Assembly: GCF_013315695.1 (NCBI RefSeq)
Contig: NZ_CP054353.1
DNA: 64,000 bases
Source: Escherichia coli
GTDB lineage: Bacteria; Pseudomonadota; Gammaproteobacteria; Enterobacterales; Enterobacteriaceae
Direction: 5' to 3' (one strand)
Shown: positions 21,471-53,642 of the stretch, one piece after another
Numbering within the stretch: position 1 is the first letter of the stretch
Layout: every line of letters starts with the position of its first letter
Translations under genes and position numbers: made by a program
Notes under the pieces: model-generated
Told to the model about the DNA's origin: nothing
The model's database searches: none
The model's input: the letters and a program-made list of their open reading frames with translations, nothing else

Positions 21471-21525
21471 GGTGATGCTGCCAACTTACTGATTTAGTGT
21501 ATGATGGTGTTTTTGAGGTGCTCCA

Positions 21526-21801
21526 GTGGCTTCTGTTTCTATCAGCTGTCCCTCCTGTTCAGCTACTGACGGGGTGGTGCGTAACGGCAAAAGCACCGCC
21601 GGACATCAGCGCTATCTCTGCTCTCACTGCCGTAAAACATGGCAACTGCAGTTCACTTACACCGCTTCTCAACCCGGTACGCACCAGAAAATCATTGATA
21701 TGGCCATGAATGGCGTTGGATGCCGGGCAACAGCCCGCATTATGGGCGTTGGCCTCAACACGATTTTACGTCACTTAAAAAACTCAGGCCGCAGTCGGTA
21801 A
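21526..21801 (+). CDS. insA: IS1 InsA protein
   Basis: 91-aa [20 protein letters not shown]... with zinc-finger cysteines. Confidence 0.93.
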
Positions 21802-22223
21802 CCTCGCGCATACAGCCGGGCAGTGACGTCATCGTCTGCGCGGAAATGGACGAACAGTGGGGCTATGTCGGGGCTAAATCGCGCCAGCGCTGGCTGTTTT
21901 ACGCGTATGACAGGCTCCGGAAGACGGTTGTTGCGCACGTATTCGGTGAACGCACTATGGCGACGCTGGGGCGTCTTATGAGCCTGCTGTCACCCTTTGA
22001 CGTGGTGATATGGATGACGGATGGCTGGCCGCTGTATGAATCCCGCCTGAAGGGAAAGCTGCACGTAATCAGCAAGCGATATACGCAGCGAATTGAGCGG
22101 CATAACCTGAATCTGAGGCAGCACCTGGCACGGCTGGGACGGAAGTCGCTGTCGTTCTCAAAATCGGTGGAGCTGCATGACAAAGTCATCGGGCATTATC
22201 TGAACATAAAACACTATCAATAA
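21720..22223 (+). CDS. insB: IS1 InsB reading frame (expressed as InsAB' transposase by -1 frameshift)
   Basis: 167-aa ORF overlapping the insA 3' end in the -1 frame. Confidence 0.88.
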
Positions 22224-22354
22224 GTTGGAGTCATTACCGGTTGTAGTTTTCACTACATGTCCATACATAAAATGGGGTAACATTCACGCGCCTGGTAGCG
22301 TTACCAACGCTACGCTCAAACATAATGATTCTAATAAAACCTCAGGAGACTACT

Positions 22355-23002
22355 ATGCCTGAAGCAACGCCTTTTCAGGTGATGATTGTGGATGATCATC
22401 CACTTATGCGACGCGGTGTTCGTCAGTTACTGGAGCTTGATCCTGGCTTTGAAGTGGTCGCCGAAGCGGGCGACGGCGCGAGCGCGATCGATCTGGCGAA
22501 TAGACTGGATATCGACGTGATCTTACTGGATCTCAATATGAAAGGTATGAGTGGCCTGGATACCCTCAATGCCTTGCGCAGGGATGGCGTTACCGCGCAA
22601 ATTATTATCCTGACCGTATCAGATGCCTCCAGCGATGTCTTTGCGCTGATAGACGCAGGCGCAGACGGTTATCTGTTGAAAGATAGCGACCCGGAAGTGT
22701 TGCTGGAAGCGATTCGTGCCGGAGCGAAAGGCAGCAAAGTCTTTAGCGAACGCGTCAATCAGTACTTACGTGAACGTGAAATGTTTGGCGCGGAAGAAGA
22801 TCCCTTCAGCGTGCTGACGGAGCGCGAGCTGGATGTTCTGCACGAGCTGGCACAGGGGCTGTCAAATAAACAGATTGCCTCGGTGTTGAATATTTCCGAG
22901 CAGACAGTAAAAGTACACATTCGCAATCTGCTGCGTAAACTCAATGTCCGCTCACGCGTGGCGGCCACCATTCTGTTCCTGCAACAACGCGGGGCACAAT
23001 AA
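22355..23002 (+). CDS. narP: Nitrate/nitrite response regulator NarP (LuxR/FixJ family)
   Basis: 215-aa product from MPEATPFQVMIVDDHP; receiver domain plus C-terminal LuxR-type HTH; ORF-track start at 22325 is an upstream extension. Confidence 0.92.
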   Translation: MPEATPFQVMIVDDHPLMRRGVRQLLELDPGFEVVAEAGDGASAIDLANRLDIDVILLDLNMKGMSGLDTLNALRRDGVTAQIIILTVSDASSDVFALIDAGADGYLLKDSDPEVLLEAIRAGAKGSKVFSERVNQYLREREMFGAEEDPFSVLTERELDVLHELAQGLSNKQIASVLNISEQTVKVHIRNLLRKLNVRSRVAATILFLQQRGAQ

Positions 23003-23004
23003 AA

Positions 23005-23038
23005 ATAGCCCGATGGCATCACCATCGGGCCTCTTTTT
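23005..23038. terminator. Bidirectional rho-independent terminator between convergent narP and ccmH
   Basis: Hairpin agcccgatgg-catca-ccatcgggc flanked by A-run upstream and T-run downstream. Confidence 0.7.
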
Positions 23039-50876: not shown

Positions 50877-51555
50877 AGGGGCGAAGCTCCGCCTCAGGTG
50901 ACCGATGGAGTGTGGTTAAGGTAGCGGTAAAAGCGTGTTACCGCAATGTTCTCTCTTCTCTGGAATATGATACACCGCCGAGAAATCATCACCTTAACCT
51001 CTGATAATCGTCATATACCGGACAAGACTAGTGGATTTCAGCATGCATTATATGAAGTGGATTTATCCACGCCGCTTACGCAATCAAATGATTCTGATGG
51101 CAATCCTGATGGTCATTGTCCCAACGCTTACTATTGGTTATATCGTAGAAACAGAAGGACGTTCAGCAGTCTTATCTGAAAAAGAGAAAAAACTTTCTGC
51201 CGTGGTCAACCTGCTTAATCAGGCGCTAGGCGATCGCTATGATCTCTACATCGACTTACCGCGTGAGGAGCGTATCCGCGCATTAAATGCAGAACTTGCC
51301 CCCATTACCGAAAATATCACTCACGCCTTCCCTGGCATCGGCGCTGGTTATTACAACAAAACGCTGGATGCGATAATCACCTACGCGCCTTCAGCGCTAT
51401 ATCAGAATAATGTGGGCGTTACCATTGCCGCAGATCACCCTGGTCGCGAAGTCATGCGTACAAATACCCCTTTGGTTTATTCAGGCAGGCAGGTGCGCGG
51501 CGATATTTTGAATTCAATGATCCCCATTGAGCGTAATGGTGAAATCCTCGGCTAT

Positions 51556-51564
51556 ATCTGGGCC
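51556..51564. repeat. 9-bp target-site duplication of IS1 copy 2 (atctgggcc); second copy at 52333..52341
   Basis: Identical 9-mer directly flanks both IS1 ends; the repeat encodes I-W-A of AtoS. Confidence 0.88.
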
Positions 51565-51579
51565 GGTAATGACTCCAAC

Positions 51580-52083
51580 TTATTGATAGTGTTTTATGTT
51601 CAGATAATGCCCGATGACTTTGTCATGCAGCTCCACCGATTTTGAGAACGACAGCGACTTCCGTCCCAGCCGTGCCAGGTGCTGCCTCAGATTCAGGTTA
51701 TGCCGCTCAATTCGCTGCGTATATCGCTTGCTGATTACGTGCAGCTTTCCCTTCAGGCGGGATTCATACAGCGGCCAGCCATCCGTCATCCATATCACCA
51801 CGTCAAAGGGTGACAGCAGGCTCATAAGACGCCCCAGCGTCGCCATAGTGCGTTCACCGAATACGTGCGCAACAACCGTCTTCCGGAGCCTGTCATACGC
51901 GTAAAACAGCCAGCGCTGGCGCGATTTAGCCCCGACATAGCCCCACTGTTCGTCCATTTCCGCGCAGACGATGACGTCACTGCCCGGCTGTATGCGCGAG
52001 GTTACCGACTGCGGCCTGAGTTTTTTAAGTGACGTAAAATCGTGTTGAGGCCAACGCCCATAATGCGGGCTGTTGCCCGGCAT
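51580..52083 (-). CDS. insB: IS1 InsB reading frame (copy 2)
   Basis: 167-aa ORF identical to copy 1 InsB. Confidence 0.88.
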
Positions 52084-52277
52084 CCAACGCCATTCATGGC
52101 CATATCAATGATTTTCTGGTGCGTACCGGGTTGAGAAGCGGTGTAAGTGAACTGCAGTTGCCATGTTTTACGGCAGTGAGAGCAGAGATAGCGCTGATGT
52201 CCGGCGGTGCTTTTGCCGTTACGCACCACCCCGTCAGTAGCTGAACAGGAGGGACAGCTGATAGAAACAGAAGCCAC
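52002..52277 (-). CDS. insA: IS1 InsA protein (copy 2)
   Basis: 91-aa ORF identical to copy 1 InsA. Confidence 0.93.
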
Positions 52278-53642
52278 TGGAGCACCTCAAAAACACCATC
52301 ATACACTAAATCAGTAAGTTGGCAGCATCACCATCTGGGCCAATGAATTAACCGAAGATATTCGCCGCCAGGCCTGGAAAATGGATGTGAGGATTATCAT
52401 TGTGCTCACCGCCGGTTTGCTGATAAGCCTGCTGTTGATTGTCCTTTTCTCCCGTCGCCTGAGCGCCAATATAGATATCATCACCGATGGCCTCTCGACT
52501 CTGGCACAAAATATTCCCACTCGATTACCACAATTGCCCGGTGAAATGGGGCAAATCAGTCAGAGTGTTAACAACCTCGCCCAGGCACTGCGTGAAACGC
52601 GGACACTTAACGATCTGATTATTGAAAACGCTGCCGATGGCGTCATTGCCATTGACCGCCAGGGTGATGTAACCACCATGAACCCGGCAGCAGAAGTCAT
52701 TACTGGCTATCAACGTCATGAACTGGTAGGGCAGCCTTACTCCATGTTGTTCGACAATACTCAGTTCTACAGTCCAGTACTGGATACGCTGGAACATGGC
52801 ACCGAACATGTAGCACTGGAGATCAGTTTTCCAGGCCGTGACCGCACCATTGAACTCAGTGTCACGACCAGTCGTATTCATAACACGCACGGTGAAATGA
52901 TAGGTGCTTTGGTGATTTTCTCTGATTTAACTGCCCGCAAAGAAACCCAGCGCCGCATGGCGCAAGCAGAACGCCTCGCTACACTGGGTGAGCTGATGGC
53001 TGGCGTGGCGCATGAAGTACGTAATCCGCTAACGGCTATTCGTGGTTATGTACAGATCTTGCGCCAACAAACCAGCGACCCAATACATCAGGAATATCTG
53101 TCCGTAGTACTCAAAGAAATCGATTCAATTAACAAAGTTATTCAGCAATTGCTCGAATTTTCACGTCCACGCCACAGTCAATGGCAACAAGTCAGCCTCA
53201 ATGCATTGGTTGAAGAAACTCTGGTACTGGTACAAACCGCCGGCGTACAAGCGCGGGTCGACTTCATAAGCGAACTGGATAATGAATTAAGCCCGATTAA
53301 CGCCGATCGTGAACTGCTCAAACAGGTACTACTGAATATCCTGATCAATGCCGTCCAGGCTATCAGTGCACGAGGGAAAATTCGCATTCGAACCTGGCAA
53401 TACAGCGACTCACAACAGGCCATTTCGATAGAGGACAACGGCTGTGGCATTGATCTCTCGCTGCAAAAAAAGATCTTCGATCCCTTTTTCACCACCAAAG
53501 CCTCAGGAACCGGGCTTGGTCTGGCGTTAAGTCAACGCATCATTAATGCCCATCAGGGTGATATTCGCGTCGCCAGTTTGCCGGGCTACGGCGCAACCTT
53601 CACGCTTATTTTACCGATCAACCCGCAGGGAAATCAGACTGT

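Follow-up and report, generated by a model that had tools for sequence, protein, structure and literature searches.

Two identical inverted IS1A copies around a 29.3-kb core segment of an Escherichia coli chromosome are probably two separate simple insertions

[quoted passage not shown] Two IS1 copies can also bound a composite transposon, either as direct copies in Tn9 or as inverted copies in Tn1681, and the frequency of IS1 transposons falls as their length rises. Inverted IS pairs have been described as substrates of inversion in three studies (PMC4173774, PMC5009759, PMC12065110). In the first, recombination between inverted IS copies leaves the interval inverted, and an IS1-mediated inversion of 1.49 Mb was reported for the LTEE population Ara-1; the second gives the mechanism and the per-genome rates of IS recombination and describes short reads as being without signal for such inversions. 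In the third, on IS1-activated evolution, 54 inversions were found, all of them IS-mediated; their median length was 84 kb, and they spanned 2.2 kb to 1.7 Mb. The same work places typical composite transposons below 10 kb and reports inverted IS1 pairs which moved the pqqL region (PMC12065110).

Here we analyzed a pair of IS1 copies in a stretch of 64,000 nucleotides of an E. coli chromosome (the window). The single long inverted repeat given by the repeat finder has its arms at 21470-22240 and 51563-52333 (771 nt, 100% complementary), of which 3 nt lie beyond IS1 and are a chance extension into the flanks. The left element (copy L, 21471-22238, plus strand) and the right element (copy R, 51565-52332, minus strand) are each 768 bp long, stand in inverted orientation and are separated by 29,326 bp; copy L is supported by the repeat finder and by the Pfam IS1 domains. 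The initial annotation had described two identical IS1 copies in opposite orientation, and this is confirmed to the base, as the nucleotide-level comparison that it proposed gave no difference over 768 bp of exact reverse complement. BLAST of IS1 against the window returned just these two copies and no third one.

Copy L has its IRL end toward yejO and its IRR end toward narP, so that its transposase reads toward narP, and copy R has IRR as its inner end and IRL as its outer end. The terminal inverted repeats are imperfect in both copies, with 18 of 23 positions matching. Both contain the insA and insB' reading frames and the AAAAAAC frameshift motif at IS1 nt 307-313; in copy L the InsAB' transposase, made by a -1 frameshift, is encoded at 21526-22223 (plus strand; located by translation, Pfam and mapping of the MSB1_4I coding sequence) with the A6C slippery motif at 21777-21783, and the transposase coding sequence of copy R is at 51580-52277 on the minus strand. 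The proteins match PF03811, PF12759 and PF03400 (Zn_ribbon_InsA, HTH_Tnp_IS1 and DDE_Tnp_IS1) with E-values of 8e-21 to 3.5e-78, and the annotation of strain MSB1_4I has at the copy L site an IS1A transposase, given as a coding sequence with programmed frameshift at the same coordinates. Both elements are IS1A members of the IS1 family, with which their length, ends, reading frames, domains and target duplications all fit. No IS1A variant is more widespread than this exact 768-bp sequence, which is carried by many unrelated chromosomes and plasmids, BL21 and strain C among them; because it is the commonest variant, the identity of the two copies says little.

Each copy is flanked by its own direct repeat of exactly 9 bp, with no further extension: GGTTGTAGT at 21462-21470 (outer) and 22239-22247 (inner) for copy L, and ATCTGGGCC at 51556-51564 (inner) and 52333-52341 (outer) for copy R. 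The matched pairs had been reported before, and re-inspection shows no mismatch in them. A match of 9 in 9 is expected by chance at 4^-9, or about 4e-6 per site. At the empty sites of strain AF3, on the narP side and in atoS, each 9-mer is present once, and the same holds for ATCTGGGCC at the empty atoS site of MSB1_4I. Since the 9-mers are single at the empty sites of relatives, both repeats are true target-site duplications. The local AT content at the two insertion sites is 61% and 55%, versus 48% for the window.

The distribution of the two copies was then compared over 5,426 complete E. coli genomes, none of which holds both. MSB1_4I differs from the window by 6 substitutions and no gaps over about 63 kb, the 777-bp insertion in atoS of the window aside, and it carries the narP-side IS1 at the identical base; AF3, MS 21-1 and other near-identical genomes are without either copy. 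At the atoS site IS1 was found in none of the 5,426 genomes, the regional IS1 copies being at other positions. As the narP-side copy is present in MSB1_4I and the atoS copy in none of the genomes searched, the insertions are separate and sequential, and copy L is inherited because it is common to this strain and MSB1_4I. IS1A would first have inserted into the yejO-narP spacer and later, in a recent event private to this strain among those genomes, at atoS codons 172-174, each transposition producing its own 9-bp duplication. We place a probability of about 0.9 on this reading, in which two separate simple IS1A transpositions probably took place in an IS1-rich lineage and the 29.3 kb between them is core DNA that stayed in place. 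The independence of the two insertions, already proposed in the initial annotation, is borne out by one relative with the left copy only, another with neither, and an interior that is collinear without gaps. The lineage is rich in IS1, with at least 40 IS1 pieces among the matches listed for MSB1_4I; by our estimate, about 40 copies in 5.3 Mb would put about 40% of random positions within 30 kb of some copy. No donor can be named for the atoS copy, because IS1 is dense in the genome and the variant is ubiquitous.

Copy L lies in the AT-rich spacer between yejO, an autotransporter gene (18667-21258, minus strand), and the divergent narP (22355-23002, plus strand); the start codon of yejO is 212 bp from its IRL end and that of narP is 116 bp downstream of its IRR end. 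This spacer has been struck by IS1 at no fewer than four independent sites, with the transposase always toward narP. A precise insertion hotspot was considered and rejected, as the IS1 copies that other genomes carry in the ato locus or close to narP are at different bases; the spacer is a target only on a regional scale. A scan for promoter consensus over 21200-22420 gave only the promoter-like site of IS1's own IRL and none in the 116 bp before narP, which is weak evidence as regards narP expression. The narP-side IS1 serves as a lineage marker in common with MSB1_4I.

Copy R interrupts atoS, which is intact in MSB1_4I. The 5′ fragment (51043-51564, plus strand) covers codons 1-174 (522 nt) and its reading frame continues for 26 codons into IS1 before a stop, and the 3′ fragment (52333-53646, plus strand) holds codons 172-608 and the stop codon, is severed from the promoter and start codon, and encodes TM2, HAMP, PAS, HisKA and HATPase_c. 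Excision in silico of IS1 with one copy of the duplication restores an atoS reading frame of 1827 nt and 608 aa. The break falls after residue 174 of 608 and all Pfam domains of AtoS are at residues 209-600; the kinase is thus truncated upstream of all its signalling domains, for which reason atoS is taken as inactivated and the strain is predicted from its sequence to be an atoS null. We infer from this inactivation that AtoSC induction of atoDAEB is lost, and for the use of short-chain fatty acids and acetoacetate such induction is probably impossible in this strain. This knock-out, which the initial annotation touched on only briefly, is a more concrete biological effect than the potential for inversion, and the atoS IS1 serves as a strain marker.

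The unique interior (22248-51555, 29.3 kb) was examined with gap-free alignments, annotation and reading frames, and it has native order and orientation. Its genes are narP, ccmHGFEDCBA, napCBHGADF, yojO, eco, mqo, yojI, alkB, ada, apbE, ompC, micF, rcsD, rcsB, rcsC and atoS codons 1-171. The gene list given earlier for this interval is right, as the named genes translate intact at the expected coordinates; all 27 interior genes are intact reading frames, and micF (44197-44290) is intact too. Against window positions 19506-51564 MSB1_4I aligns without gaps and with 4 mismatches, of which one falls within the IS1 element; AF3 aligns to 22239-51564 without gaps and with 5 mismatches. The interior is, on this alignment evidence, ordinary core chromosome, and its order is the ancestral one.

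The two copies form a recombination substrate of 768 bp at 100% identity, inverted and on the same replicon. RecA-dependent crossing-over within the pair would flip the segment reversibly, and we infer from the general mechanism that a flip would also exchange the inner duplication halves between the copies, so that one copy would come to lie between GGTTGTAGT and GGCCCAGAT and the other between ACTACAACC and ATCTGGGCC. No further gene would be disrupted by such an inversion. On the minus strand lie 22,146 of the 26,793 coding nucleotides of the segment (about 83%), and the GC skew of the plus strand is negative (-0.043 for the window and -0.056 for the segment). A flip would shift about 83% of coding bases, ompC, nap and ccm included, from the leading to the lagging strand, and because of this shift the inverted isomer is more likely to be neutral to mildly costly than advantageous.

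Signs of an inversion were searched for in the duplications, in the gene order and at a recombinant junction. The halves of the duplications have not been exchanged between the copies, each IS1 having its own matched pair, and MSB1_4I and AF3 have the interval in the same orientation as the window. A query built as the left junction that an inversion would create (yejO flank, IS1 and the reverse-complemented atoS 5′ flank) was found at 80% coverage or more in 0 of the 5,426 genomes, a result which does not address propensity as none of them carries both copies. The strain itself was read from a single assembly, and heterogeneity of its population is outside the reach of such a reading. The earlier description of the pair as a ready substrate for a 29-kb inversion therefore stands as to geometry, but this geometry is generic to any inverted IS pair, and no occurrence was found in the sequence or in the 5,426 genomes. 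Its further claim, that the copies have not recombined since insertion, holds in the form of no net inversion, for which matched duplications and collinearity speak, but not beyond it: matched duplications rule out only an odd number of crossovers, and the locus would look no different after an even number of flips or after gene conversion.

The best surviving alternative, although we consider it improbable, is that the segment has in fact recombined by an even number of flips, or the copies by gene conversion, so that its untouched look is only apparent. An even number of flips is undetectable in principle. For conversion one could point to nt 262, the sole base at which copy L (A) differs from its MSB1_4I orthologue (T), and at which copy L equals the atoS copy; but the A variant is the commonest one, and it is simpler to assume a private T, or a sequencing error, in MSB1_4I. 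Nucleotide 262 was accordingly dropped as a sign of gene conversion or of parent and daughter copies, the variant in the window being the ubiquitous IS1A.

An assembly artefact, with the atoS IS1 misplaced or the identity of the copies produced by collapsed or polished reads of a multicopy IS1, is less probable again. About 40 hard-to-resolve IS1 copies in the lineage and an insertion seen in no other complete genome are consistent with it, and polishing of multicopy repeats to a consensus could have contributed to the perfect identity. The exact IS1 ends and the perfect 9-bp duplication of sequence that is single-copy in the relatives argue against it, as misjoins do not create these.

It is less probable still that the pair marks a nascent module of 30.9 kb able to move as an IS1 composite transposon, perhaps to a plasmid, or that cultures contain a standing polymorphism for the inversion which affects expression. 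In the former case ompC, micF, rcsDBC and nap-ccm would travel with the IS1 unit, and in the latter the inversion would put the atoS promoter fragment toward yejO, or narP next to atoC. The related proposal, that the pair is a selected invertible switch with an influence on the expression of narP, yejO or the ato genes, is very improbable. The repeated IS1 insertions of one orientation in the yejO-narP spacer, and the atoS promoter fragment that would face yejO in the flipped state, are the points in its favour; but four of four insertions in the same orientation are expected by chance about 1 time in 8, the second copy occurs in a single strain, the flipped state was seen in 0 of 5,426 genomes, and no site-specific recombinase is annotated in the orthologous segment. 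IS1 is strongly polar, from which weak read-through effects are expected. By comparison with switches of the Hin, Gin or Fim type, the annotation of the orthologous segment lists no dedicated recombinase gene, and apart from the IS1 pair the window has no long inverted repeat.

A derivation of the atoS copy from the narP-side one through intramolecular replicative transposition, inverting the interval in one step, would suit copies that are inverted and identical, but this duplicative inversion is highly improbable, since it predicts that the new 9-bp duplication is divided between the copies, with its halves inverted to each other, and that the interval is inverted, and matched direct pairs and collinearity with MSB1_4I and AF3 are seen instead. 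Equally improbable is the arrival of the 30.9-kb unit as a block, in the manner of the IS1 composite transposons Tn9 and Tn1681. It is true that a full IS1 copy stands at each end of the segment, with IRL outermost in both, and IS1 pairs, inverted ones included, mobilise tens of kb under hyperactive IS1 (PMC12065110); but the two outer flanks are not alike, with GGTTGTAGT on the left and ATCTGGGCC on the right, so that no single duplication bounds the unit, and its interior and flanks are in native order without gaps against relatives lacking one or both copies. The separate duplication of each copy and the native, collinear cargo together rule out such an arrival. Future mobility of the unit is expected to be inefficient at such a size.

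The reading as two sequential simple insertions leaves an arrangement that is ordinary and of an already known kind, and the locus matters little beyond strain-level bookkeeping and makes no open question testable. For the assembly and comparison of genomes of this IS1-rich lineage, it is a reminder to expect IS1-bounded inversions and deletions that are invisible to short reads. Compared with IS1 composite transposons, the locus is alike in having two complete IS1 copies that bracket DNA with functional-looking ends outermost, and unlike Tn9, Tn1681 and the pqqL units it has no common duplication, its cargo is native core DNA and its 30.9 kb is well above the typical size. With the IS1-mediated inversions described before (PMC4173774, PMC12065110) it shares an identical inverted IS1 pair and an interval whose size is within the observed range, but its duplications have not been swapped and its genes stand in ancestral order. 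With simple IS1A insertions of E. coli it shares the 768-bp length, the imperfect inverted repeats, the A6C motif of insA/insB' and the 9-bp duplications; the element itself is without any difference from these, and the sole novelty, as judged against the 5,426 complete genomes, is the site in atoS.

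The window contains a single long repeat, for which the repeat finder gave inverted arms at 21470-22240 and 51563-52333 (771 nt, 100% complementary). Reading of the ends along with a script check placed the elements at 21471-22238 (+) and 51565-52332 (-), each of 768 bp and exact reverse complements of one another, and the three surplus nucleotides of the arms are chance matches of the flanks. The initial annotation of two identical, inverted IS1 copies was right in its coordinates and facts, and it held in this nucleotide-level comparison. Searching the window by BLAST with the element gave no additional copy, full or partial. 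The terminal inverted repeats match at 18 of 23 positions, the element encodes insA and insB' with AAAAAAC at IS1 nt 307-313 as the slippery site, and the fused InsAB' product has Pfam matches to Zn_ribbon_InsA, HTH_Tnp_IS1 and DDE_Tnp_IS1; on all features tested it is IS1A. The left copy, between yejO and narP, is flanked by the direct repeat GGTTGTAGT (21462-21470 and 22239-22247) and the right copy, inside atoS, by ATCTGGGCC (51556-51564 and 52333-52341), and both of these previously noted repeats proved on re-inspection by script to be exactly 9 bp.

The order of the insertions was read from close relatives. The E. coli window differs from MSB1_4I (NZ_LR898874.1) by 6 substitutions and no gaps over the ~63 kb compared, besides one 777-bp insertion; MSB1_4I has an annotated IS1A upstream of narP at the same base and an intact atoS, where the 9-mer is present once. 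AF3 (NZ_OZ547117.1), which differs by 6 substitutions in a comparison of 33.5 kb, has neither copy, and the same is true of MS 21-1 and several more near-identical genomes; the empty sites of AF3 have each 9-mer once (...gacaaGGTTGTAGTtttcac... and ...ctatATCTGGGCCaatgaa...); the repeats are therefore genuine target-site duplications. The narP-side insertion is the earlier one because it is common to the window strain and MSB1_4I, and the atoS insertion, found in none of the 5,426 complete E. coli genomes searched, is recent and private to the window strain. Two independent insertions, as first proposed, are borne out by the separate duplication of each copy and by MSB1_4I having the left copy only and AF3 neither. 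Also common to the window and MSB1_4I is an IS4 copy at ~17160-18583 (transposase 17172-18518, minus strand), just downstream of tRNA-Pro(GGG) (17050-17126) between proL and yejO, with a near-palindromic direct repeat AACCATTACGGTT at 17147-17159 and 18584-18596. The gene yejE (~6111-7135, minus strand) encodes a permease of YejABEF, an ABC transporter for peptides and microcin C. In MSB1_4I its annotation is that of a frameshifted pseudogene of 1025 nt, against an expected full length of 1026 nt. The window should share this frameshift, since it is identical there without gaps; the frameshift may be a real mutation or a homopolymer sequencing error.

The left copy lies within the divergent spacer between yejO and narP (319 bp), at 212 bp from the start codon of yejO and 116 bp from that of narP, with its transposase oriented towards narP; a consensus scan, which is a weak test, found no promoter-like site in the 116 bp before narP. 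The AT-rich spacer (21380-21470; loci L004, L005 and L006 of the comparison) is a recurrent regional target: separate E. coli lineages have at least four independent IS1 sites in a stretch of ~90 bp, with 8-9-bp duplications, and 15 of 5,426 genomes have IS1 there; the transposase points towards narP in 4/4 insertions, which may be chance (probability ~1 in 8).

The right copy breaks atoS after codon 174 of 608, and the truncated frame runs 26 codons into IS1 before a stop; the full 608-aa AtoS frame is recovered when IS1 and one copy of the duplication are taken out in silico. All Pfam matches of AtoS (HAMP, PAS, HisKA, HATPase_c) are within residues 209-600, so AtoS is inactivated, and from the established role of AtoSC the induction of atoDAEB would be lost. 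IS1 occurs somewhere in the rcsC-ato region of 19 other genomes among the 5,426, at other positions in the subset inspected. It is elsewhere in the ato locus in EC812A1, Combat13F7 (loci L007, L009) and 63-2 (L008); one configuration has IS1 with no duplication and an adjacent ~1.1-kb deletion that takes away the 3' end of atoS and the 5' end of atoC, and another has IS1 in the atoC-atoD spacer beside an atoC pseudogene. These cases suggest repeated IS1-associated decay of the ato system.

Alignments of the bracketed segment (22248-51555) with MSB1_4I and AF3 have no gaps and no change of orientation. Its gene content is as initially described: narP, ccmHGFEDCBA (annotated ccmH, dsbE and ccmF-A), napCBHGADF, yojO, eco, mqo, yojI, alkB, ada, apbE, ompC, rcsD, rcsB and rcsC all translate intact from the window, and MicF is located at 44197-44290. 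The segment is native core chromosome in ancestral order, neither inverted nor brought in as a unit. Two Rfam matches are expected for the region: the REP-derived, nucleoid-associated naRNA4 at 47951-48027 (minus strand, in the rcsB-rcsC interval) and, upstream of rplY, the leader of ribosomal protein L25 at 13309-13334 (plus strand).

The duplications are unswapped and the gene order is ancestral, so the window carries no signature of a completed inversion; the claim of no recombination since insertion stands to this extent, but an even number of flips, possible in principle, would look identical. Gene conversion between the copies in the window strain is hinted at by IS1 nt 262 (window 21732), which is A in both copies and T in the narP-side orthologue of MSB1_4I, a synonymous difference in insA. 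However, of all exact IS1A sequences the A form is the one most widely spread over unrelated chromosomes and plasmids. It is simpler to assume a private change in MSB1_4I, and that the two window copies are identical is uninformative on their relationship. No particular IS1 can be singled out as donor of the atoS copy: MSB1_4I has at least 40 IS1 matches, and we roughly estimate that ~40% of new insertions at random would fall within 30 kb of an existing copy. The exact IS ends and the perfect duplication of a single-copy 9-mer make an assembly artefact unlikely. Duplicative inversion by intramolecular replicative transposition is excluded, as it would split the new duplication and invert the interval, neither of which is seen, and entry as a composite transposon is excluded by differing outer flanks, a separate duplication at each copy and a native cargo, which IS-free relatives have at the same locus.

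Inversion of the segment is potential only. Identical inverted repeats in the same chromosome can serve as substrate for RecA-dependent crossing-over; between these 768-bp copies it would turn the interval round and exchange the inner half of each duplication. The predicted recombinant junction, used as a query, reached at least 80% coverage in none of the 5,426 genomes, none of which has the two copies together; the search is therefore uninformative on inversion propensity. The inversion would break no extra gene, as it would begin and end at existing IS1 copies. GC skew of the plus strand is below zero (-0.043 in the window, -0.056 in the segment), which makes the minus strand leading, and 22,146 of the 26,793 coding nucleotides of the segment are on it; ~83% of the coding sequence, with ompC and nap-ccm in it, would therefore be turned head-on to replication, and an inverted isomer would probably be between neutral and mildly costly.

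The phenomenon is a known one; only the atoS allele with this insertion site is new. Most large rearrangements of the long-term evolution experiment arose via recombination of IS copies, including a 1.49-Mb IS1-mediated inversion (PMC4173774). Lee et al. described the mechanism and estimated from deletions 4.5e-5 IS recombinations per genome per generation, short reads being blind to inversions between IS copies (PMC5009759). With such inversions documented, the proposal that this inverted pair, identical over 768 bp, is a substrate for inversion is upheld. In an IS1-activated evolution experiment 54 of 54 inversions were IS-mediated (median 84 kb, range 2.2 kb-1.7 Mb; PMC12065110), and the 29-kb interval falls inside this size range; what the window shows is an inverted-IS pair of the standard kind, not a site-specific switch.
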